A program made the translations under genes and the position numbers. DNA of 32,000 nt, from assembly GCF_029504745.1 (NCBI RefSeq), contig NZ_JAQFIQ010000001.1, forward strand, positions 90,001 to 122,000. Reading direction: 5' to 3'. The notes below the pieces were generated by a model that saw only the letters and a program-made list of their open reading frames with translations, did no database searches and had not been told where the DNA came from. This stretch comes from Breznakia sp. PF5-3. Its GTDB lineage: Bacteria; Bacillota_I; Bacilli_A; Erysipelotrichales; Erysipelotrichaceae. Every line of letters starts with the position of its first letter. Positions within the stretch are counted from its first letter, which is position 1. Of the stretch, positions 9,383-32,000 are shown in pieces.

Positions 9383-9922
9383 ATGGAATTAAAAGGATCA
9401 AAGACTGAGAAAAATTTACAAACTGCTTTTGCTGGAGAATCACAAGCATCGATTAAATATACATTCTATGCTTCAAGAGCAAAAAAGGATGGATATGTTC
9501 AAATTCAAAATGTTTTTAATGAAACTGCACATAATGAACACGAACATGCGAAAATATGGTTTAAATTATTACATGGTGGTTCAGTAAAAGATACAGCATG
9601 GAATTTAAAAGATGCTGCTGCTGGAGAGAATTACGAATGGACTGATATGTATGCAACATTTGCTAAAGAAGCTGCAGCAGAAGGATTTGATGAAATAGCA
9701 GAAAAGTTTAAACAAGTTGGTGCTATTGAAAAACGTCATGAAGAAAGATATTTAACATTATTAAAAAACGTTGAAGAAAATGCAGTATTTAGCAAAATCG
9801 AAGAGCAAGTATGGATTTGTTCAAACTGTGGACATATTTACATGGGGAATGATGCTCCTGATATGTGTCCTGTATGTGATCATCCACAAGCACACTTTGA
9901 AATCTTTAATGAAAACTTCTAA
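9383..9922 (+). CDS. rbr: Rubrerythrin
   Basis: The N-terminus is [30 protein letters not shown]. Di-iron ExxH elements ([16 protein letters not shown]) are present, with a C-terminal rubredoxin-like CSNCGH...CPVCDHP. I prefer the ATG at 9383 over the in-frame TTG at 9362. Confidence 0.93.
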
Positions 9923-9943
9923 AAGCGGGAAATCCGCTTTTTT
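9921..9943 (+). terminator. Rho-independent terminator of rbr
   Basis: The stem AGCGG (9924-9928) pairs with CCGCT (9934-9938) around a 5-nt loop and is followed by T6 at 9938-9943. Confidence 0.7.
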
Positions 9944-9950
9944 ATTTTTA

Positions 9951-9982
9951 ATAAAAAAAAGGTGGATTATTCTTCCACCTTT
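9951..9982 (-). terminator. Rho-independent terminator of the Nfu-like gene, overlapping its last codons
   Basis: On the plus strand AAAGGTGGA (9958-9966) pairs with TCCACCTTT (9974-9982) around a 7-nt loop. On the minus strand the hairpin is followed by a U-run, seen as the plus-strand A8 at 9953-9960. The stop codon at 9967-9969 sits in the loop. Confidence 0.75.
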
Positions 9983-10206
9983 ACTTCTTTAATACCATCA
10001 ACTTCATCTTGAAGCATTGCTTCAAGACCAAATTTGATTGTGTCATCTAGTGCCAAACACCCTACACAAGCACCAATCATTCTTACATATACAATACCAT
10101 CTTCGTATCGTAAAAACTCTACATCTCCACCATCACGTTGAATATAAGGTCTTATCTTTTCAATGACGGCAATTATTTCATTATTTTTTTTCTCCATAGC
10201 TACCAT
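9967..10206 (-). CDS. NifU C-terminal domain (Nfu-type) Fe-S cluster protein
   Basis: This is a 79-aa protein. It carries IRPYIQRDGGDVEF and the CxxC motif GACVGC typical of Nfu/YutI-like proteins. Confidence 0.82.
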   Translation of the reverse strand: MVAMEKKNNEIIAVIEKIRPYIQRDGGDVEFLRYEDGIVYVRMIGACVGCLALDDTIKFGLEAMLQDEVDGIKEVKVEE

Positions 10207-10335
10207 TCAAACTCCTTAGGATATATTATATCACTATAAATAAAAAATTATATAGAAAATGACCTAGATTTGTGAAAATAATAATTATTATAATGTTATC
10301 TGTGATATAATAAAAAACATGAAGGAGGTCTGTTC

Positions 10336-10698
10336 TTGTATCAAAATGGAGATATTGTTGAAGGTATTATTACAGGTATTCAACCTTATGGAGCCTTTGT
10401 AAAAATAGATGATCAACATAATGGATTGCTGCATATATCGGAAATTTCAGATAGTTATATACACGATATTCATGAATATGTATCAATGAAAGAAAAAATT
10501 AAAGTTAAAATACTCGATGTTGGGACAGATGACCATCATTTTAAATTATCACTAAAAGCATTGCATAAAGATGCTGGTAGAAAACGGCGTTCACAACCTC
10601 ATCGTTTATTACCTAAACAAGAGCTTGGATTTAAAACGTTAGAACTACATTTAGATAAGTGGATTAAGGAAGGAATGGATGGAGGTAACAATGATTAA
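10336..10698 (+). CDS. S1 RNA-binding domain protein (general stress protein 13 / YugI-like)
   Basis: The S1 fold signature is GDIVEGIITGIQPYGAFVKIDDQHNGLLHISEIS. The TTG start lies 7 nt after the SD GAAGGAGG (10321-10328). The gene is adjacent to pgi, as yugI is near pgi in B. subtilis. Confidence 0.82.
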   Translation: MYQNGDIVEGIITGIQPYGAFVKIDDQHNGLLHISEISDSYIHDIHEYVSMKEKIKVKILDVGTDDHHFKLSLKALHKDAGRKRRSQPHRLLPKQELGFKTLELHLDKWIKEGMDGGNND

Positions 10699-18779: not shown

Positions 18780-20951
18780 GTGAATATATTGGATTTATTA
18801 AATGGACTGAACAAGCAACAATTAGAAGCTGTAAAAACAACGGATCATCATTTGCGTATCGTTGCAGGTGCTGGTAGTGGAAAAACACGAGTTATTACAA
18901 CAAGAATTGCATATTTGATTGAGGAAAAGCATGTTGCTCCTTATCGAATTTTAGCTATTACTTTTACGAATAAAGCTGCAAACGAAATGAAAGTAAGAGT
19001 TGAGAACTTTCTTAACGTAACTAGATCTGGTGTCCTTATTTCTACGATCCACTCTTTGTGTGTGCGCATTTTAAGAGAAGAAATTCGACATTTTAATTAT
19101 CCCCAAAATTTTGTAATTTTAGATGGTGATGATCAAAAGAGTATTTTAAGAGAAATTTATAAGAAGCATAATATTGAAGTAAAGACATTATCTTTTAATC
19201 ATGCACTATCTTATATTTCAAATAATAAGTGTGCTTTTATCCGTGCGGATAAAGCCATGCAAATGGTATCTTATGAATTTGAGAAGCTAATGGCTACTGT
19301 TTATAAAGACTATGAAAAGAAATTAGAAGATATGCAAGCGCTTGATTTTGATGATTTGCTAATCTTTGTAAATCGCTTATTTAAAGAGAATAGTGAAGTA
19401 CGTGATAAATGGCAAAGCCGTTTTGATTATATCCATGTAGATGAATTTCAAGATGTCGATGAAATTCAATATGGAATTATTAAAAATTTAATTGCTCCAT
19501 CTGCATATTTGTGTGTAGTTGGAGACCCTGACCAAACGATTTATACATGGAGGGGGGCTAAAGTTGATATTATTATGAATTTTGAAAAAGACTTCCCAAA
19601 TTGTGAAAGTATTATTTTGAATGAAAATTATCGTTCTACGAAAAGTATATTAAAAGGTGCTAATGCATTGATTAGAAATAATCAATTTCGTGTCGAAAAA
19701 GATTTATTTACTAATAATGATGAAGACTACAAAATCAATTTCTATGAGAGTCAGGATGAACGTTATGAAGCATTGTGGATTGCCAAAAAGATTGTATCCT
19801 TAAAAGAAGAAGGGGTTCCATACCATGAAATTGCAATCTTATATCGTTCAAATTATCTATCGCGCAACCTTGAGAAAGTTTTGTTAGAAGCTCACATCCC
19901 TTATCGTATTTATGGAGGTGTGAAATTCTTTGAACGAGCAGAAATAAAAGATGCTTTATCATACTTGCGTTTATTAGTGGAAAACTCAAAAAGTATGAGT
20001 GAGTTAGCGATTAAACGAATTCTTAATGTTCCTCGTCGTGGGGTTGGACCAAAAACAATGGAAACGATTGATTTGTTAGCTGATGCGAATAAAGAAGACT
20101 ACTTTGATGTATTGAGTAAATATGCTGTTGCAAAAGGGAAAACGCAACGAAATATCGAAGAATTTGTTGCTTTGATTTCAAAATATCGTTCTGAAAAAAG
20201 TACATATTCAATTTCTATTATATTGAAAAAGCTTTTAGAAGAAAGTGGTTACTTAAAAGCTTTGGAAATTGCAAATGAGACAGAACGCTTAGAAAATGTT
20301 AATGAATTGATTCATGATATTGAAAATTATGAAGAAAATAATCCAGAAGGATCTTTGGACGATTATTTACAGATGATTTCTTTGTATACAGATACACAAG
20401 ATGAAGAATTCAAAGATAGCATTCAATTGATGAGTGTTCATGCTGCAAAAGGTTTGGAGTTTGATTGTGTCTTTGTATATAGTGTCAGTGAAGGTATTTT
20501 CCCTAATGAAAGAAGTGTAAACGAAGGGGGAAGACATGCTTTAGAAGAAGAGAGAAGACTTGCTTATGTTGCTTTCACAAGAGCCAAAAAACAATTGTTT
20601 TTAACTAGTTCAGCTGGATATTCATATGTTACACAACGAATGAAAAGTGCATCACGCTTTATAAAAGAACTGGGAGAAGATGTTGTTAACCGTGAAGGAG
20701 AAATATTTAATCCTTATCCAAACAAACAAAGTGTTGATAAAGGGGAAAAGCAATACGATGGAACATCATCTATGAAGATGCCAACCAGCAAAAAGAAAGG
20801 TTCTATTCGCAAAGGTGATTTGATTCATCATGATGCCTTTGGTGAAGGGGTGGTTATTACTTTAAAAGATGGTGTCGCAACCATTGCCTTTGATAAAAAG
20901 TTTGGTATTAAAAAATTGGCCGCTAATCACCATATGATTACAAAGAAATGA
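18780..20951 (+). CDS. pcrA: ATP-dependent DNA helicase PcrA (UvrD/Rep superfamily 1)
   Basis: Walker A is AGAGSGKT. DEFQD and VGDPDQTIYTWRGA motifs are present. It shows pcrA-ligA synteny. The in-frame TTG at 18789 lies 6 nt after the SD GAGGTG (18777-18782) and may be the true start rather than the GTG at 18780. Confidence 0.95.
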   Translation: MNILDLLNGLNKQQLEAVKTTDHHLRIVAGAGSGKTRVITTRIAYLIEEKHVAPYRILAITFTNKAANEMKVRVENFLNVTRSGVLISTIHSLCVRILREEIRHFNYPQNFVILDGDDQKSILREIYKKHNIEVKTLSFNHALSYISNNKCAFIRADKAMQMVSYEFEKLMATVYKDYEKKLEDMQALDFDDLLIFVNRLFKENSEVRDKWQSRFDYIHVDEFQDVDEIQYGIIKNLIAPSAYLCVVGDPDQTIYTWRGAKVDIIMNFEKDFPNCESIILNENYRSTKSILKGANALIRNNQFRVEKDLFTNNDEDYKINFYESQDERYEALWIAKKIVSLKEEGVPYHEIAILYRSNYLSRNLEKVLLEAHIPYRIYGGVKFFERAEIKDALSYLRLLVENSKSMSELAIKRILNVPRRGVGPKTMETIDLLADANKEDYFDVLSKYAVAKGKTQRNIEEFVALISKYRSEKSTYSISIILKKLLEESGYLKALEIANETERLENVNELIHDIENYEENNPEGSLDDYLQMISLYTDTQDEEFKDSIQLMSVHAAKGLEFDCVFVYSVSEGIFPNERSVNEGGRHALEEERRLAYVAFTRAKKQLFLTSSAGYSYVTQRMKSASRFIKELGEDVVNREGEIFNPYPNKQSVDKGEKQYDGTSSMKMPTSKKKGSIRKGDLIHHDAFGEGVVITLKDGVATIAFDKKFGIKKLAANHHMITKK

Positions 20952-20954
20952 TAG

Positions 20955-24063
<3,109 letters not shown>

Positions 24064-24072
24064 GGGGTACTT

Positions 24073-24366
24073 ATGGAAATGTATAGCAATGAATATTTTA
24101 AAAAGTTAGCAAATCAAATTATGTTTGATTTAAGCGATGAAGAAATTGTTAGTTTAAAAGCAGATTTTGAAATTATGCTTCAACAAATGGAACTGTTGAA
24201 TAAAATTGATACAGATGGTATTACCGAAATGGTATATCCTTTTGAGGATGAAACATATTTTCTTCGTGAAGATAAAATTAATCATGTTTTGTCACAAGAG
24301 GATGCACTTGAAAATGCGCCTGAAACAAAAGATGGGCAAATTGTTGTTCCAAAGGTGGTGAAATAA
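24073..24366 (+). CDS. gatC: Glu/Asp-tRNA amidotransferase subunit C
   Basis: This 97-aa protein immediately precedes gatA with a TAATG stop/start overlap. Its size and position are typical of gatC. Confidence 0.88.
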   Translation: MEMYSNEYFKKLANQIMFDLSDEEIVSLKADFEIMLQQMELLNKIDTDGITEMVYPFEDETYFLREDKINHVLSQEDALENAPETKDGQIVVPKVVK

Positions 24367-25781
24367 TGCGTATTGATGATTATAAGCAAGGTAATCTTGA
24401 AAAGGTTGTAGAAGCTGGAGAAAAAGCAAAAGCTTCTCAGGAACGCTTAAATGCGGTTGTCAGCTTTTGTGATATAGAAGAACAAATCAAAGATTATAAA
24501 CATACACAAAGTGATTTATTATTTCAAACACCTGTTGCATTGAAAGATAATATAAATACCAAAGGAACCCGTACAACAGCATCAAGTCGAATACTGGATA
24601 ATTACATTCCTGTTTATAATGCAACTATTGTTGATAAATTGAAAGCGGCAGGAGCTGTTTTTGTTGCGAAAACGAGCATGGATGAATTAGGAATGGGTGG
24701 AACTAATTTAAATGCATATACAGGAAAAGTAAATAATCCTTGGGATTTACAACGTATTTCAGGTGGGAGTAGTGGAGGAAGCGCTGCACTTGTAGCAGAA
24801 GGTGTTGTACCATTAGCCATTGGTAGTGATACTGGTGATAGTGTAAGAAAGCCAGCTGCATATTGTGGGGTGGTAGGTCTTAAACCTACTTATGGTAGAA
24901 TTTCGCGTTATGGGATAATTCCATATGCTTCAAGTTTAGATCATGTTGGTTTATTTACTACAACAATTAAAGATGCTGCTACTGCTCTTGAGGTATTAGC
25001 AGGCCGTGATGATAACGATATGACAACTTCTTATAAACCAGTCGAAAAATATAGTTCTTTACTAAATAGTGATTTGCAAGGAAAACGTATTGGGGTCATT
25101 AAGAATGTTATGGATGCAATTGAAGATAAAACAATTCAAGAAACCTTTAAACAGTTATTAGACAAATTAGAAAGTCGTGGTGCAATTATTGAAGATGTTG
25201 TATTTGATACAGATCTAATGAATGCTTTATTACCAACTTATTATGTTATATCCAATGCTGAAGCAACTGCCAATCATTCCAATTTAGATGGGATTCGTTT
25301 TGGTGTTCGTGAAGATGGAGATGATCTTACTTCTATCATGATCAACTCTAGAACAAAAGGCTTTAGTAGTGAGGTAAGAAAAAGGTTTGTTATTGGATCA
25401 TATTCTTTGTTTACTGAAAATCAAGATAAGATTTTTAGAAAAGCACAAAAAGTTAGACGAAGAATTGTTGATGCATTAAAAGAAAAACTTGCTTCTTATG
25501 ATGTTTTATTAGCAAGTGCTGCTGGATCTATAGCACCATATCCTGATGAATCTTATGGTGAAAAATTAAGTGCTACATATTTAGTTGCTGAAAACCATAT
25601 GTTGCTAGGAAATTTTAGTGGATATCCATCCATTACTGTTCCCAATGCTATTGTTGATGGAATGCCAGTTGCTGTAAATCTATTAGCAAAACCATTTGAA
25701 GAAACATTGATGCTTTCCATTGCGAAAGCAATTGAAGAAGAATGTGGCTTAGAAGGGTATTGTAGGGAGGTAAGTGAATAA
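24366..25781 (+). CDS. gatA: Glu/Asp-tRNA amidotransferase subunit A
   Basis: The amidase signature is GGSSGGSAALVA...GSDTGDSVRKPA. The gene lies in the gatCAB operon context. Confidence 0.96.
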   Translation: MRIDDYKQGNLEKVVEAGEKAKASQERLNAVVSFCDIEEQIKDYKHTQSDLLFQTPVALKDNINTKGTRTTASSRILDNYIPVYNATIVDKLKAAGAVFVAKTSMDELGMGGTNLNAYTGKVNNPWDLQRISGGSSGGSAALVAEGVVPLAIGSDTGDSVRKPAAYCGVVGLKPTYGRISRYGIIPYASSLDHVGLFTTTIKDAATALEVLAGRDDNDMTTSYKPVEKYSSLLNSDLQGKRIGVIKNVMDAIEDKTIQETFKQLLDKLESRGAIIEDVVFDTDLMNALLPTYYVISNAEATANHSNLDGIRFGVREDGDDLTSIMINSRTKGFSSEVRKRFVIGSYSLFTENQDKIFRKAQKVRRRIVDALKEKLASYDVLLASAAGSIAPYPDESYGEKLSATYLVAENHMLLGNFSGYPSITVPNAIVDGMPVAVNLLAKPFEETLMLSIAKAIEEECGLEGYCREVSE

Positions 25782-27205
25782 TGAACTTTGAAGTAATTAT
25801 TGGAATTGAAATTCATTGTGAATTAAAGACAAAAACAAAAATGTTTTCTAGCGCTCCTGTAAGCTTTGCAGCTAAGCCCAATACTTGTACAAATGAAATT
25901 GATTTAGGGATGCCTGGAACTCTTCCATGTGTAAATCAAGAGGCGGTTAGAAGTTCTATTAAGGTCTGTCATGCACTTGAGTGCGAAATTGACCCATTGG
26001 TTCGCTTTGATCGTAAGAATTATTACTATTCGGATTTACCAAAAGGATTTCAAATTACACAACAGTTTTTTCCAATTGGGAAAAATGGAGAAATCATGAT
26101 TAATACAGATGATGGTGAGAAAATTATTCGTATCAATCGTATTCATATGGAAGAAGATACTGCAAAACAATTTCACCATGATGATGGCTCTTATTTAGAT
26201 TTCAATCGTGCAGGAACACCATTGATTGAAATTGTTACAGAACCGGATATGCGAAATGGTAAAGAAGCTGCTGCTTATGTAGAAAAGATTCGTAACATTT
26301 TGTATTACCTTGGTGTAAGTGATGTGAAGATGGAAGAAGGATCTTTACGTTGTGATGTAAATATCTCTTTACGCCCTTATGGTAGTGATACATTGGGGGC
26401 AAAAAGTGAAATTAAAAACTTGAATTCAATTAGTAATGTTCAAAAAGCAATTGAATACGAAATTGATAGACAAAATAAAGTCTTATTATCTGGTGGTACA
26501 ATTGATCAAGCTACTTTACGATATGATGAAACTGCAAGAAAAACCGTTTTGATGAGAAAAAAAGAAGGGGATGTTGATTATAAATATTTCCCTGAACCAA
26601 ATATTTTTCCAATTCGTTTAAAAGAAGATTTTATCTCATCTATTATCGAGCAGTTAGACGAACTACCAGATCAAAGAAAGCATACATATATTCATTCATA
26701 TGGTTTAAATGAATATGATGCTCAGCAAATTGTTGCAAATAAAGAGTTATCTGACTTTTACAATAAAGTAGTAACAAATACAAAAGAATATAAATTGGCA
26801 GCAAATTGGATATTAGGGGAAGTAAGTGCTTTTCTTAATAAAGAAAATATTGCAATTGATCAAAGTTCTATTATCCCTGAAGAGTTGGCAATAATGATTG
26901 ACATGATTGTGAAAAAGGAAATTTCAGGAAAACAAGCGAAAGAAGTTTTTGAAGAAATTGTACTTGGAAAAAAAGCAAAAGAGGTTGTAAAAGCCAAAGG
27001 AATGGAACAAGTAAGCGATGAAAATGCCATTTTGGATTTTGTTATAAATGTACTAGATGCAAACCCTCAATCAATTGAGGATTATAAAAATGGAAAAGAT
27101 CGTGCTGTAGGTTTCTTGGTTGGTCAAGTTATGAAATTATCCAAAGGACAAGCAAACCCAGCGATAACAAATAAGTTAATAGTTGAGGAATTGAAGAAAA
27201 GATAG
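25781..27205 (+). CDS. gatB: Glu/Asp-tRNA amidotransferase subunit B
   Basis: The N-terminus is MNFEVIIGIEIHCEL. RIHMEEDTAK and a C-terminal YqeY-like tail are present. It shares a TAATG overlap with gatA. Confidence 0.96.
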   Translation: MNFEVIIGIEIHCELKTKTKMFSSAPVSFAAKPNTCTNEIDLGMPGTLPCVNQEAVRSSIKVCHALECEIDPLVRFDRKNYYYSDLPKGFQITQQFFPIGKNGEIMINTDDGEKIIRINRIHMEEDTAKQFHHDDGSYLDFNRAGTPLIEIVTEPDMRNGKEAAAYVEKIRNILYYLGVSDVKMEEGSLRCDVNISLRPYGSDTLGAKSEIKNLNSISNVQKAIEYEIDRQNKVLLSGGTIDQATLRYDETARKTVLMRKKEGDVDYKYFPEPNIFPIRLKEDFISSIIEQLDELPDQRKHTYIHSYGLNEYDAQQIVANKELSDFYNKVVTNTKEYKLAANWILGEVSAFLNKENIAIDQSSIIPEELAIMIDMIVKKEISGKQAKEVFEEIVLGKKAKEVVKAKGMEQVSDENAILDFVINVLDANPQSIEDYKNGKDRAVGFLVGQVMKLSKGQANPAITNKLIVEELKKR

Positions 27206-27248
27206 TAAAATATACTAGAGATTTCTAAATCATTATAAGGAGTAGTGT

Positions 27249-27869
27249 ATGGCGTTAAAGAAAAAGAAATTAAAAACACCAAAAAATACTGGACAAAAGA
27301 AAACTAACAAGAGAAGACCAAATTGGATATTGCGTTTTACACTTATCGTCATCGCAGTTCCTTTAATTATCTTAGCTTGGGTTTTAATGACCTCTTTAGA
27401 AACATCGGGTGAACCAGTTGTTGGAAATCGTTTTGATAACCAATTGGATCCTGCAATTACTGAAAAAAAAGTAGATGAATTAAAAGGGAAGTTTACATAT
27501 GCTGAAGCTGAAAATGTAGAAGTAAATTTAAAAAGTGCTACTTTAAGAATTACCATTGATGTAGCTGATGCAACTACGGATGAGCAAATTACAGCAATTA
27601 TGAATGATGTATACGCAAAGGTAGATGAAACACTACCAATTGCTACGTATTTCACAAATAAAAAAGCAGTAAAAATGTACGATCTTGAAATAAATGTATA
27701 TAATTATATACCTGATGATACAAATAGAGCTGGATATATTTATCATCTTTTAACAAAAAATGCTGGAAATGATGGACCAGAACATTCAATTCCATCACAA
27801 CCAAAAAATCAATCTACAGCAGATGATTTAAAGAAAGCACCTAAAAAAGGAGAACAAGTCGGACAATAG
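27249..27869 (+). CDS. Hypothetical membrane-anchored protein with a basic N-terminus and one TM helix
   Basis: The SD AAGGAG (27237-27242) precedes the ATG. The N-terminus MALKKKKLKTPKNTGQKKTNKRRPNW is followed by the hydrophobic FTLIVIAVPLIILAWVLMTSL and a soluble part of about 150 aa. I recognise no family. Confidence 0.7.
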   Translation: MALKKKKLKTPKNTGQKKTNKRRPNWILRFTLIVIAVPLIILAWVLMTSLETSGEPVVGNRFDNQLDPAITEKKVDELKGKFTYAEAENVEVNLKSATLRITIDVADATTDEQITAIMNDVYAKVDETLPIATYFTNKKAVKMYDLEINVYNYIPDDTNRAGYIYHLLTKNAGNDGPEHSIPSQPKNQSTADDLKKAPKKGEQVGQ

Positions 27870-27879
27870 TCCGATTTTT
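27859..27879 (+). terminator. Rho-independent terminator spanning the stop codon of the preceding gene
   Basis: TCGGAC (27859-27864) pairs with GTCCGA (27869-27874) around a 4-nt loop, followed by T5 at 27875-27879. The TAG stop at 27867-27869 lies across the loop/stem junction. Confidence 0.7.
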
Positions 27880-29212
27880 GTTATTAAATATGATGAAAAA
27901 AAATGATATTTATGAAGGTACATGTAGTGATTATACATATGATGGTCTTGGGATTGTAAAAGTTGATGGTTTTTCAGTATTTGTTAAGAATGTCATTATT
28001 GGTGAAACTATTTTATTTAAACTCATTAAAATAAAGAAAAATTATGGCTATGGACGTATAATTGAGATTAAAAACCCCTCCATACACCGCACAACACCAT
28101 TCTGTGAGTATTTTGGAAAATGTGGGGGGTGTCAATTACAGCATATGGATTTAGAAGCGCAAAATGAATTAAAAGAAAATATAGTCATCAATAATATTCG
28201 CAGAATTGCTCATAGTGATGCTGAAGTTAAACCAATACTCAATGGACAGCCAAGAGCATATCGTAACAAGGCACAATTTCCATTAACAGCAAATCCATAC
28301 GCTCTTGGCTTTTATCGTATTCATTCAAATGAAATTGTTGATATTACTATGTGTCCTATACAAAGTGACAAGATAAATACACTATATCAATACCTGAGAT
28401 TACATTTAAAATCAACTTCTTTTGTATCTAAATTACGTCATATACTTATTAAACATGCATTTCATACAGATGAGATCATGTTGGTATTTATCGCTAGTGA
28501 TAACATACAAAATAGTATGGAAGAATTTATAAACAAACTAACAAAAGAACAGAATATTACTAGTGTTATTTTAAATGTAAACCGCTCTACAAATAATGTA
28601 ATTCTGGGAAATGAAGAACATTTACTTTTTGGTAGTAATACGATCAATGAATCGCTAATGGGATATACCTTTCAAATTGCTTCCAAATCGTTTTATCAAG
28701 TCAACCCAGAGCAGACAAAGGTTTTGTACGAGAAAGTATTAGAGTATGCAAATATCACTAAAAATGACACTGTAATTGATTTATACTGTGGAGTAGGAAG
28801 TATATCTTTATTTCTTGCGAAATCAGCAAAGCAGGTAATTGGGATTGAAATCGTTGAAGATGCGATTACAAATGCAAAAGCAAATGCGAAAATGAATCAT
28901 ATTAATAATATTGAATTTGTATGTAGTGATGCTGGTACATATGCTGAATATATGGTAGCGAATAATATTACTGCAAATATTGTTGTTCTAGATCCACCAA
29001 GAAAAGGATGTGATGATAAAACAATTCAAAGTGTTATTAAGATGCACCCTGAACGTATTGTTTATGTATCTTGTAATCCTGCTACACTAGCAAGAGATAT
29101 TGAAAAATTTGAACAATTTGATTATAAATGTACCATCGTACAACCCGTTGATATGTTTCCACATACATTTCATGTGGAAACGGTCTGCTTGATGTCTAGG
29201 AAAGAGAAATAA
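27878..29212 (+). CDS. rlmD: 23S rRNA (uracil-C5)-methyltransferase, RlmD/RumA family
   Basis: It has an N-terminal TRAM-like domain. The [4Fe-4S] cysteines are CEYFGKCGGCQLQH plus MCPIQ. The SAM site is DLYCGVGSISL, LDPPRKG is present, and the catalytic motif is YVSCNPATLARD. The start is uncertain (TTG at 27878, or ATG at 27890 or 27893) and no clear SD is visible. Confidence 0.9.
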   Translation: MLLNMMKKNDIYEGTCSDYTYDGLGIVKVDGFSVFVKNVIIGETILFKLIKIKKNYGYGRIIEIKNPSIHRTTPFCEYFGKCGGCQLQHMDLEAQNELKENIVINNIRRIAHSDAEVKPILNGQPRAYRNKAQFPLTANPYALGFYRIHSNEIVDITMCPIQSDKINTLYQYLRLHLKSTSFVSKLRHILIKHAFHTDEIMLVFIASDNIQNSMEEFINKLTKEQNITSVILNVNRSTNNVILGNEEHLLFGSNTINESLMGYTFQIASKSFYQVNPEQTKVLYEKVLEYANITKNDTVIDLYCGVGSISLFLAKSAKQVIGIEIVEDAITNAKANAKMNHINNIEFVCSDAGTYAEYMVANNITANIVVLDPPRKGCDDKTIQSVIKMHPERIVYVSCNPATLARDIEKFEQFDYKCTIVQPVDMFPHTFHVETVCLMSRKEK

Positions 29213-29360
29213 ATAGCGAAGTGTTGCGTATTTACTGGATTTTTTTGAGATTAGGCAATAGTTCATGAAAGTCCGTATTTCTTATTTTGAAACATATCTA
29301 CTGCAAAAACGGTCAGAGTGTTTAGGCAGTGGATTAGATGTTATAGAAGGAGGCGTTTTC

Positions 29361-30134
29361 ATGGAATTTGATTTGAGAACTTGTGATGCAGCATACAACT
29401 TCGTTCTTGATTTTATGGGTATGACTCCTGATGAGTACATCACAGAGAGTATTATAAATTGTGAGAATGACTTTGAGACATTTTGGAGCCGGAATATTAA
29501 ACGAATAAAATCAATTGATATTTCTGGGGTGAGGCTGATGGCATTTCATGTTGTAGGTTCAATTGATGAATGTTGCGAGATTAAAGAAAATGGTTTGATG
29601 AATTTACAAAGTGTTCTTTCGGAAGAAACCATCTTAAAGAAGCTATTAGAAAAAACAGGTGTCATATTTGATATTCCAAATAAGCTCGTGAGCTGTAAAG
29701 AGAATAATTATGACATTGATTATGAGAAATACAAAGGCCATCATTTCTTGACAGGAATGGATGAAAAGTTATACCGTGTTGCTCATCGAGTTTATTATGA
29801 TTTTTGTGTAAATGGATTCATGGCTAATGATAATGTGTTCAATTATGGTACTAACATTCACGAAAGGCCTGAATTCTTAATGACACTCGGAGAATTATTT
29901 CCGCAGGCAGAAAAAGTTGAAAGTTTCTGGAAAACAAAAGCTAAGAGTTATAGAGTTGACTTCTATGCGACCATTGACCAAGTTCACCGATTCAATTTTG
30001 AACTTGATGAGTATAGAGACCCTCCTTACGAGGATTGGGTTGACCTTGATGATGATATGAAACTTAAAAAATGGATGTTATCACACATTATTGATAGAGC
30101 GCATGGCGATTTGGGCATACAATTTTATATATAA
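29361..30134 (+). CDS. Hypothetical soluble acidic protein, unassigned family; gene A of the terminal cassette
   Basis: An ATG at 29361 lies 7 nt after a perfect SD GAAGGAGG (29346-29353). The track start at 29265 has no SD. The product is 257 aa with no hydrophobic segment and is rich in D/E/F/Y. I recognise no motif. Confidence 0.7.
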   Translation: MEFDLRTCDAAYNFVLDFMGMTPDEYITESIINCENDFETFWSRNIKRIKSIDISGVRLMAFHVVGSIDECCEIKENGLMNLQSVLSEETILKKLLEKTGVIFDIPNKLVSCKENNYDIDYEKYKGHHFLTGMDEKLYRVAHRVYYDFCVNGFMANDNVFNYGTNIHERPEFLMTLGELFPQAEKVESFWKTKAKSYRVDFYATIDQVHRFNFELDEYRDPPYEDWVDLDDDMKLKKWMLSHIIDRAHGDLGIQFYI

Positions 30135-30211
30135 AAGATGATGTGATAATTCCGGTAAATCAAATTATTGATATTTCAGAATTATAAAAGCATATAAAAG
30201 GCGGTGTGATT

Positions 30212-30763
30212 ATGGGTGAATATGTAAAAAAGAAAAAATACATGGTATTCCAAAGTGTAGAATCACTTCAGCAAGCTGTTAATGTTCTAAATGATGCGGC
30301 AGCTGCGGTAAATGATAAATCACGTACAATTAGAGAAAGCGCAATCCCTGAAGTGCTTGCAGGAGTATTAGGTGCTGGTATTGGCGGAGTAGGTTCTTTT
30401 GCTGCACTTTACGGGTTGGGTTCTGTTGTAGGATTATCAGCAGCAGGTATAACATCAGGACTTGCTGCAGCAGGTAGCATTGTTAGCGGCGGTATGGTTG
30501 CAGGTGTATTCGTACTTGCAGCACCTGTAGCAGCCCTTGCAGCAGCAGGAGTAGGATTTGCTACACACTTAAAAAATAAACAGTTAAGACAAGAAAAAGA
30601 ACGTTTGTATAAAGAAGCTTTGAAAAAGCATGAAGCAATTATTCAAGCTTTGAAATCTGAGGTTGATGCTGATAAAGAGCGTCTCGATTACTTACAGAGC
30701 TTAAATATTCTTCTTACGCAAATAATAAAAGACTTAAAGAAGGATTTGGGTAAGGCGGCATGA
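30212..30763 (+). CDS. Hypothetical glycine-zipper membrane protein with a C-terminal coiled coil; gene B of the terminal cassette
   Basis: An ATG at 30212 lies 7 nt after the SD AAGGCGG (30198-30204). A 73-residue uncharged core (nt 30350-30568) contains 17 Gly and 18 Ala. A K/E/L-rich heptad-like tail of about 64 aa follows. Confidence 0.8.
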   Translation: MGEYVKKKKYMVFQSVESLQQAVNVLNDAAAAVNDKSRTIRESAIPEVLAGVLGAGIGGVGSFAALYGLGSVVGLSAAGITSGLAAAGSIVSGGMVAGVFVLAAPVAALAAAGVGFATHLKNKQLRQEKERLYKEALKKHEAIIQALKSEVDADKERLDYLQSLNILLTQIIKDLKKDLGKAA

Positions 30764-32000
30764 GCAAATTCAAGTACACTGAAACAGAACAACAATTTAA
30801 TAATGCTTTGAATCATCAGTCAAAAGAATTAAGTTTAATTAAAAGACCTGATATGACATCAGTAGAAGTTTGCATTTCTGAGAGCGAAGAACTACTGAAG
30901 GAGTTAGGTATCTCTACAGAGAGTATGCCTGAAGTGGTTAACCCTACATTTCAAAGGGGGATGGTAGTTCCTACGTGGGAGGAATTGTGCATTCAAGCTG
31001 AACAGGAAGTTGGTTCAACAACAGATTTAGAATCCCTTTTTACAGATGAAGAATTGAGAATGAATCAAGTTGCTCTACGTGCTTTGAATATCGATTACAA
31101 TAATATTCATAAGCTTGATAAAATAGATATTACTATTTGTGCAACTGCAGGTATTTTGGGCGTTGTTGTTGATATTCTACTAATAGGAATTCCGAAAAAA
31201 ACACCAGAAGGTTTAAAAGGTGGGCCACTTTCCAATTATGTAAGAGACTGGTTTAATCAAAGATTTCCAGAAGTAGAAATGGAAAAACTCTCCAATTCAA
31301 AAGTAAGCAAAGTATCATTTGATGCTCAGGATAATCGCCATACTACAGAGTATGTTACCGGTTTATCTGCTTACTATCATAGATTGTTATCGCTTGGGCA
31401 TGACCCTATCCTTGGATTGATATTTGGAGTTTATGACATTTTGACTGATAAAATGACGACGATTGATAAAACTGGCAAAATGGTATCTCAGGTTATGGAA
31501 AACTATGCAGACCGAAAAGAAAGTGATATTTTTGCTGCAATTGCTAAGCAGATTATTCATTTCAAATCTGACATTACAACGTCTATGGGGCTACCGGCTC
31601 CTTTGATGGCATTATTTAACTTACTCCAGTTTGGTAGTATTGGAGAAGAAGAACAGATAATTGCTGAAATTGTGCAGGGAATGTATTACGAAGGTTATGA
31701 TTTCATTCATTTTTGTAGTATGTCAATTCCGACAATGATAATTGAAGTAATCATCAGATTAGGCTATGGCATTAAGAGGATTAAAGAAGGTAATTCTATA
31801 AAGGACTCGATTCCTTTTTCATTAAATCGAGAAAAACATCCAAAGCTGAGCACTATGTTATTCATTGGACATTCTGCGGCTACTGCTGTAAATGCTGGAA
31901 AGGTTTACTTCACCAAAAATCCTATGGCAATAAACTATCCTCAATGGATAACATTTGCTAAATATTTATACAAACAATTGAAATGGGTGTTGTTAGAGAA
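30760..32000 (+). CDS. Hypothetical large protein, 3'-truncated by the window edge; gene C of the terminal cassette
   Basis: It is absent from the ORF track because no stop occurs before base 32000. I translated it by hand. The ATG at 30760 overlaps the gene B stop (ATGA), and 413 codons are open to the edge (MSKFKYTETEQQFNNAL...KQLKWVLLE). One strong TM candidate lies at residues 123-145 (ITICATAGILGVVVDILLIGIP). Several shorter hydrophobic or amphipathic stretches follow. Confidence 0.8.
   Translation, partial: MSKFKYTETEQQFNNALNHQSKELSLIKRPDMTSVEVCISESEELLKELGISTESMPEVVNPTFQRGMVVPTWEELCIQAEQEVGSTTDLESLFTDEELRMNQVALRALNIDYNNIHKLDKIDITICATAGILGVVVDILLIGIPKKTPEGLKGGPLSNYVRDWFNQRFPEVEMEKLSNSKVSKVSFDAQDNRHTTEYVTGLSAYYHRLLSLGHDPILGLIFGVYDILTDKMTTIDKTGKMVSQVMENYADRKESDIFAAIAKQIIHFKSDITTSMGLPAPLMALFNLLQFGSIGEEEQIIAEIVQGMYYEGYDFIHFCSMSIPTMIIEVIIRLGYGIKRIKEGNSIKDSIPFSLNREKHPKLSTMLFIGHSAATAVNAGKVYFTKNPMAINYPQWITFAKYLYKQLKWVLLE

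Follow-up and report, generated by a model that had tools for sequence, protein, structure and literature searches.

Bunzi (Millman et al. 2022; PADLOC models PDLC03833/PDLC03834) is a defence system made up of BnzA, a TerB-domain membrane protein, and BnzB. The Bunzi of Ligilactobacillus animalis is marked as verified, and the mechanism of the system is unknown. A second body of work concerns the 3′ end of rum (rumA, here rlmD), a cross-species hotspot for integrative and conjugative elements (ICEs) and for prophages of the Phi-m46.1 type, both with serine recombinases (PMC5053989). Both subjects meet at the end of a 32,000-nt stretch from Breznakia sp. PF5-3 (Erysipelotrichaceae; contig NZ_JAQFIQ010000001.1, positions 90,001 to 122,000), called the window below. 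There, three genes named A, B and C follow rlmD (Table 1). It seems fairly probable that they mark the edge of a mobile element inserted in rlmD, with two items of cargo: an orphan gene, A, and a reduced relative of Bunzi, B–C, with an anti-phage role at the membrane.

The link to Bunzi is clearest for gene C. The PADLOC BnzB model is matched over almost its whole length by the full-length product (209 bits; E 3e-62, or 3.1e-62; profile positions 54–502 of 504), and the part encoded inside the window reaches E 3.8e-61. The canonical reference, the Bunzi of the Lactococcus plasmid pLLHPA, scores 421 bits (BnzA, 549 aa) and 509 bits (BnzB, 513 aa) with the same models. BLASTP aligns C with this lactococcal BnzB at 30% identity over 315 aa (E 5e-29), and C is the shorter protein, with 453 aa as against 487–513 aa in canonical BnzB. 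The whole BnzB superfamily comprises 945 clusters at 50% identity (E ≤ 1e-3). Among the relatives of C, conservation starts at about residue 120 and the N-terminal ∼120 aa are variable; invariant residues include D120, D123, D188, H207, R208, H214, D215, P216, H267 and D271. To judge by these alignments, such a variable N-terminus joined to a conserved core is compatible with a variable recognition region. Hydropathy indicates one strong transmembrane (TM) segment at residues 121–146 together with weaker amphipathic segments, and the AlphaFold2 model is mostly helical (predicted local distance difference test, pLDDT, 88.7; predicted template modelling score, pTM, 0.76).

Gene B resembles only a small part of BnzA. 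Its product starts with a helix, continues with a Gly/Ala-rich TM hairpin and ends in a coiled coil; in the hydropathy profile the hydrophobic stretch covers residues 45–120, of which 55% are Gly, Ala or Ser, and a charged helical tail follows. The PADLOC BnzA model is matched at E 4.6e-10, only at profile positions 313–411 of 544, which correspond to the Gly-rich TM hairpin. Inspected by eye, the middle of lactococcal BnzA resembles B in having a Gly-rich double-TM region and, after it, a helix. With 183 aa compared with ∼545 aa, B is devoid of the N-terminal TerB region and of the C-terminal ∼130 aa of BnzA: it has no TerB match in Pfam or NCBIfam at E ≤ 1 and no counterpart of BnzA residues 1–300. 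The canonical lactococcal BnzA likewise has no Pfam TerB match at E ≤ 0.01, and TerB is therefore recognisable only by more sensitive methods. Given that B is without the TerB region, B–C is a non-canonical, TerB-less ‘mini-Bunzi’. It shares with Bunzi the two-gene operon on one strand, membrane partner first and BnzB second, and the carriage on mobile elements; the ATGA overlap of the two genes at 30760–30763 means that C is translationally coupled to B. Matches of B to LeoBC, XopK and EspB are put down to the Gly/Ala-rich TM composition.

Both proteins are annotated as hypothetical (B, MDF9823764.1; C, MDF9823765.1), and nothing significant is found for A, B or C in Pfam, NCBIfam or PHROGs; the PDB sequence search is empty for A and C. 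An earlier note on this DNA held that the three genes match no known family. This holds for Pfam, NCBIfam and PHROGs and gives way in PADLOC, where C matches BnzB and B, in part, BnzA. Current defence finders would probably miss B–C, no full BnzA being present.

B and C form a conserved unit. A scan of one genome per species gave 169 relatives of C, and the 80 loci that were kept (L numbers below denote loci) have B directly upstream of C in all but two cases (78 of 80). Alignments across L001–L080 show B to be more conserved than its larger partner, 80–85% identical where C is 65–70% identical, with a near-invariant N-terminal helix and glycine zipper. About one-third of the loci differ from Bunzi by an extra gene of 96–148 aa between B and C, a shortened paralogue resembling B, in which a single hydrophobic segment is combined with the ExLYxxAxxK...LK coiled coil of B. 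Examples are found at L007:9571–10017, L030:9657–10004, L056:9657–10004 and L088:1306–1653, and in ∼25 other loci. Upstream of B the picture is diverse, with gene A, a phospholipase D (PLD)-like, WYL-helix-turn-helix (HTH), HEPN-like, Macro-domain or GmrSD gene in various loci. In 16 loci the gene directly upstream encodes an XRE-type HTH protein of ∼160–200 aa. In L006, L030, L031, L042, L045, L049, L052, L055, L056, L058, L060 and L062 it ends 5–14 nt before B, except in L006 (160 nt); the HTH gene is probably in the same operon as B, and its product may be a regulator of the B–C module.

The distribution of the pair crosses wide taxonomic distances. Proteins 87–93% identical to C occur in Enterococcus, Catenibacterium, Peptoanaerobacter, Streptococcus suis and Veillonella, that is, in Erysipelotrichia, Bacilli, Clostridia and Negativicutes, and identity at this level across such taxa can only reflect recent horizontal transfer. 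The S. suis phage phi-SsuFJNP8_rum carries B–C, with a C of 89% identity, and ∼36 phage-sized IMG/VR contigs contain the pair, mostly with tandem large serine recombinase (LSR) genes and never with rlmD. A pair of the same architecture is found in gammaproteobacterial hosts (Enterobacteriaceae) on conjugative IncHI2 plasmids (L089, NZ_CP131999.1, 4250–6140, representing >450 plasmid records). Its counterpart of B (WP_000340139, annotated ‘membrane protein’, 165 aa) shows 42% identity (E 2e-26), and its counterpart of C (WP_000083579, annotated as hypothetical, 462 aa) shows 30% identity over 80% of the length; the two match the BnzA and BnzB models in the way that B and C do and are likewise uncharacterised. 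The record of the S. suis phage has EsxA, EssB and EssC genes beside B–C; a type VII secretion link is rejected, as the 80 loci show no such association and there is no EssB/YukC match.

How the pair came to lie behind rlmD can be read from DNA identity. Through most of rlmD the window is ∼35–40% identical to Enterococcus camelliae (L003) and to an Erysipelotrichaceae metagenome-assembled genome (L007). Within 29135–29180 identity rises to 80–93%, continues past the stop codon and through the non-coding leader, and beyond it stays at ∼92% up to the window end. As this jump lies inside rlmD although the RlmD proteins of L003 and L007 are only 35% and 28% identical to that of the window, the element supplies the last ∼25 codons of the gene. 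Foreign DNA thus begins inside the 3′ end of rlmD, at about 29135–29180, and not right behind the stop codon, where the earlier note had placed the start of the cassette. The element is inserted in the terminal part of the gene and restores its reading frame. In the target gene, in the 3′-end position and in the use of serine-recombinase integrases, this resembles the known rum/rumA elements (Phi-m46.1 group, Phi-SsuD.1, Tn5252/ICESa2603- and ICESp1108-group ICEs), to which the S. suis phage with its closely related C also belongs. It differs from them in the host, a Breznakia of the Erysipelotrichaceae in place of Streptococcus, and in that only the edge of the element is in the window.

In about 19 of the 80 loci, from unrelated genera, rlmD lies upstream of B–C. 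The position recurs because the 3′ end of rlmD is an attachment hotspot of mobile elements, and a test that equates conserved position with core function, such as the earlier note proposed, would mislead here. The accessory nature which that note ascribed to the locus is borne out by the mobile-element location and the horizontal spread. LSR genes lie near or flank B–C in ∼30 loci. In eight of them, including the closest relatives, the LSR gene is convergent to C and lies 50–70 nt downstream; in some relatives lysis and tail genes of a phage follow farther on. An LSR gene or a fragment of one follows C in the closest relatives (L003/L081/L082, L004 and L006) and follows gene A alone in L100; in E. 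camelliae the fragments are disrupted by IS110. In a set of 148 dereplicated neighbour proteins the commonest domains are Resolvase, Recombinase and Zn_ribbon_recom, followed by rlmD, then by TnpV, relaxase and IS110, and then by defence genes (AbiEii, GmrSD and NERD). Neighbours of B–C include GmrSD, AbiEii, NERD, PLD-like, HEPN-like and Macro-domain proteins. The window would accordingly end at the left edge of a prophage- or ICE-type element with LSR integrases, and the slot between the rlmD junction and the recombinase gene or genes would hold exchangeable cargo, here two independent modules.

A side observation concerns the non-coding stretch behind rlmD. Positions 29191–29302 are 82% identical to L097:11190–11300, in a defence island of Enterococcus cecorum located away from rlmD, which points to non-coding DNA that is conserved and goes with the elements, for example a regulatory region or one near the attachment site (att).

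Gene A would be the first of the two modules. Its product is acidic (computed pI 4.85) and has no TM segment. The family is small (132 hits, typically 272–281 aa), and its fold, predicted with high confidence (AlphaFold model, pLDDT 95.2), has no match in the PDB (best E 1.5); in BFVD only one protein matches, uncharacterised and from a siphovirus (E 1.8e-10). Several assignments fail. Pertussis-toxin and DarT-like matches are faint (probability ≤0.13) and are treated as noise. A PtuB/HNH identity (Septu system) is not retained, since only the window copy among 61 family members hits PtuB (E 7e-5); no PtuA-like neighbour of A and no HNH fold in the fold search are found. Finally, A is not a detached TerB or N-terminal part of BnzA (hhalign probability 0.09%).

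The earlier note saw A, B and C as one three-gene cassette, and a three-component system with A as soluble sensor or effector would follow from it. In its favour, A ends 24–25 nt before B on the same strand in L001–L004 and L081, so that co-transcription is probable. The survey of loci shows no conserved trio. A accompanies B–C only in L001–L004, with a remnant in L005, and is absent from about 75 of the 80 loci; conversely, it occurs apart from B–C in L092–L103. It is found in a Clostridium perfringens integrative element at guaA, adjoining two LSR genes in Fusobacterium, between GmrSD and an nSTAND3 NTPase in E. cecorum, and near Shedu (SduA_C) and Fic genes in a metagenomic locus (L103; P0185, Thomasclavelia spiroformis type). 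In the metagenomic L100/L101:3390–6934, pcrA, rlmD and A alone are followed by a convergent LSR gene: the same cargo slot is filled by A in the absence of B–C. In Catenibacterium, homology to the window begins exactly at the A/B boundary (30131) and another gene, of 121 aa, stands in the place of A. Moreover, A has no similarity to the N-terminus of BnzA, and it is frameshifted here where B and C are intact. The most fitting description of gene A is that of independent cargo in the company of defence genes, of a kind typical of defence islands and of the cargo regions of mobile elements, and its juxtaposition with B–C is two modules side by side by chance; a three-component system is very improbable.

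The frameshift lies at the 3′ end of A. Homologues of 272–281 aa end in the nearly invariant motif LYIKDDxxIPxxQII, and comparison with every close homologue shows that one nucleotide is missing from the window near 30118/30119 (GGGCAT-ACAATT aligned with GGGCATGACAAT in L001, L003 and L004). As read, the product terminates early in GIQFYI, and the conserved tail of 17 residues, KDDVIIPVNQIIDISEL with its stop codon, is still readable in another frame. The 77-nt spacer between A and B, reported by the earlier note and correct as a length, is therefore an artefact of this deletion: an intact A would end 24 nt before B, as in the relatives. The data allow either a genuine mutation or a sequencing error; in the first case module 1 would be a stand-alone orphan of previously unseen predicted fold, crippled by its 3′ frameshift. 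Separately, direct repeats (GTGGATTAGATGT) occur upstream of A. Relatives carry an extra ∼106–120 bp between them (L001:6770–6890, L002 and L003:8458–8564), while the window (29300–29345) keeps a single repeat copy, the pattern expected from a deletion between repeats.

As to function, B–C is most likely a membrane-level anti-phage defence or superinfection-exclusion module, because of its homology to Bunzi, its moron-like position beside integrases, its carriage by phages, ICE-like elements and plasmids, and its defence-type neighbours. In this module 2, a minimal TerB-less Bunzi relative, B would keep only the glycine-zipper TM hairpin and the coiled coil that match the middle of BnzA, and C would contribute its variable N-terminal region, a single strong TM helix and a conserved core of helices in which Asp, His and Arg positions are invariant. 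Homology, gene coupling, the location in a mobile element and horizontal spread are observed; from them we infer an interaction of B with C, an anti-phage role and a membrane mechanism. The two proteins, expressed from the resident element, would form a membrane complex that senses or blocks incoming phage at the membrane. One option is that DNA entry is excluded (superinfection exclusion); another is that B oligomerises via its glycine zippers into a pore that depolarises the infected cell (abortive infection). B might thus be the glycine-zipper pore or gate, and C the sensor or regulator of B. The membrane-acting anti-phage module of the earlier note survives in this form, as an accessory, mobile and coupled membrane pair whose larger member is homologous to BnzB; A is no part of it.

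Small membrane-associated exclusion proteins are known from Gram-positive prophages. Sie2009 and Ltp, whose genes lie next to the integrase at the end of the prophage, are made in the lysogen and counter incoming phage at the membrane. B–C differs from them in that it has no sequence similarity to them (no PHROGs match) and in being a two-protein module with a large BnzB-family subunit that is also found on plasmids.

The carriage of the pair by phages, ICE-like elements and plasmids alike would also suit a module of the addiction or stabilisation type, for instance a membrane toxin and a regulator, that secures the persistence of the element in its host and does not act on phage directly. B resembles a small pore-forming membrane peptide, and on the IncHI2 plasmids the pair adjoins a HipA toxin–antitoxin system as well as an HNH gene. 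This explanation is unlikely, as a verified defence system contains a homologue of C, no toxin–antitoxin family is matched in Pfam, NCBIfam, PADLOC or PHROGs, and B, more conserved than C and always the upstream, coupled gene, is unlike the partner in toxin–antitoxin pairs with a short antitoxin.

The phage records bear on another alternative, in which B–C has a part in its carrier's own life cycle, be it phage or element, through membrane remodelling, lysis control or DNA entry and exit. BnzB-like genes on 44 jumbo-phage contigs (for the most part 200–400 kb) point in this direction, as do weak PHROGs matches of B to Rz-like spanins (E 0.008), which are explained by coiled-coil composition. 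In the related prophages, holin and endolysin have a cassette of their own and B–C lies past the integrase genes, often antisense to the late genes. Merdibacter (L056) and phage NatCom_11578 have the order tail, holin, amidase, LSR, LSR and then, on the opposite strand at the genome end, C, X, B and HTH; Streptococcus infantis (L019) has holin, lysin, LSR, LSR, a HEPN-like gene, B and C. A holin/spanin lysis cassette is rejected on these grounds, the spanin matches covering the coiled coil only and the integrase genes lying in between, and the holin-like idea of the earlier note falls with it. The same pair also exists on plasmids and as recombinase-less remnants, and a life-cycle role is accordingly rather improbable. 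Collectively, the addiction, life-cycle and three-gene explanations fit gene positions and distribution less well than does an rlmD element with A and an anti-phage B–C as cargo.

Several points weigh against this preferred explanation. The similarity of B to BnzA is weak and located in a low-complexity Gly/Ala-rich TM region: BLASTP of B against lactococcal BnzA finds nothing, and hhalign gives a probability of 14%. The model of C has no fold counterpart in the PDB, and no mechanism is readable from the structure. The experimentally tested relatives are canonical Bunzi systems only, with a BnzB ∼30% identical to C and a TerB-containing BnzA, and a lactococcal Bunzi failed to protect against the phages with which it was challenged. 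Most neighbours of B–C are not defence genes. The window breaks off within C, ahead of any recombinase, and the Breznakia element is known from its left edge only. In Catenibacterium and in many Streptococcus mitis loci, B–C stands beside rlmD and no recombinase is present; these loci look like remnants.

It is tempting to go one step further and to propose, tentatively, that B–C is a distinct, widespread and minimal membrane immunity module, the functional core of Bunzi freed of the TerB sensor, which LSR phages and ICEs have spread at ∼90% identity across four classes of Bacillota and which is also present on IncHI2 plasmids, with A as a second, free-standing gene for defence or counter-defence whose fold is new. 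For Bunzi, a minimal version found in nature would allow the core effector machinery to be told apart from what is presumed to be the TerB sensor. A 183-aa glycine-zipper protein and a BnzB-family protein provide a small and highly conserved pair for testing pores, interaction and phage triggers. The place of the pair next to integrases in prophages and ICEs of broad host range, and its presence on IncHI2 resistance plasmids, point to immunity or exclusion as a common function that travels on such elements. Phage therapy and the competition between elements could be affected by it, both in Firmicutes of the gut and mouth and in Enterobacteriaceae. Annotators of Firmicutes genomes should take genes found ‘right after rlmD’ for mobile-element cargo.

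Table 1. Features at the end of the 32,000-nt window (positions counted from its first nucleotide)
Feature	Coordinates	Strand	Evidence
rlmD (rumA), 23S rRNA U5-methyltransferase; chromosomal target gene, outside the cassette	27878..29212	+	444-aa open reading frame; full-length alignment
Left end of the inserted mobile element: substitute for the last ∼25 rlmD codons and shared non-coding leader	29135..29360	+	Rise in DNA identity
Gene A, soluble acidic orphan, 257 aa as read, 3′-frameshifted; independent cargo	29361..30134	+	Open reading frame; family; AlphaFold2
Out-of-frame remnant coding for the conserved C-terminus of gene A (KDDVIIPVNQIIDISEL and stop)	30134..30187	+	DNA alignment; translation of 30134–30190
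Gene B, 183 aa, small membrane protein, ‘mini-BnzA’ partner of C	30212..30763	+	Synteny; PADLOC; hydropathy; family alignment
Gene C, BnzB-family protein, first 413 of 453 codons inside the window	30760..32000	+	PADLOC BnzB; BLASTP; identity to the full-length protein

The local architecture drawn in the earlier note stands in its main lines. Open reading frame calling in the window gives three consecutive frames on the plus strand downstream of rlmD, and each is a real gene with many homologues. The perfect Shine–Dalgarno sequence of A (GAAGGAGG) is present at 29346–29353, 7 nt ahead of the ATG, and the ATGA coupling of B and C is confirmed. The protein types are upheld by pI and hydropathy: A acidic and soluble, B a glycine-rich, coiled-coil membrane protein and C a protein with a TM helix. 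The part of C inside the window is 100% identical to the complete protein of the same strain (P0001, 453 aa, Breznakia sp. PF5-3), which served as the full-length C. GC content at the three genes (0.34–0.38) is slightly higher than across the preceding 5 kb (∼0.31), and Rfam and tRNA scans of the window find nothing.

Further upstream, the rlmD frame aligns end to end with the rlmD genes of other loci (33–42% identity), which carry TRAM and tRNA_U5-meth_tr domains. Window positions 18780–29212 appear to share the order pcrA, ligA, gatCAB and rlmD with L081:1–8330 (E. camelliae), the order in the window being read from frame sizes, a GatB-like translation and the rlmD alignment, and Pfam domains being seen for L081 only. 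Such a shared order would place the insertion at the end of a conserved housekeeping block.

The jumbo-phage contigs (L140–L183; 80–400 kb, most >200 kb) deserve mention in their own right. They encode a BnzB-like protein of 478 aa (27–28% identity) and no detectable B; an 81-aa coiled-coil frame precedes it and a TerD-domain gene (Pfam, E 9.5e-18) follows it, for example at L141:7731–9167 and 9807–10619. This TerD neighbour is a second link of BnzB-like proteins to proteins of the Ter family.

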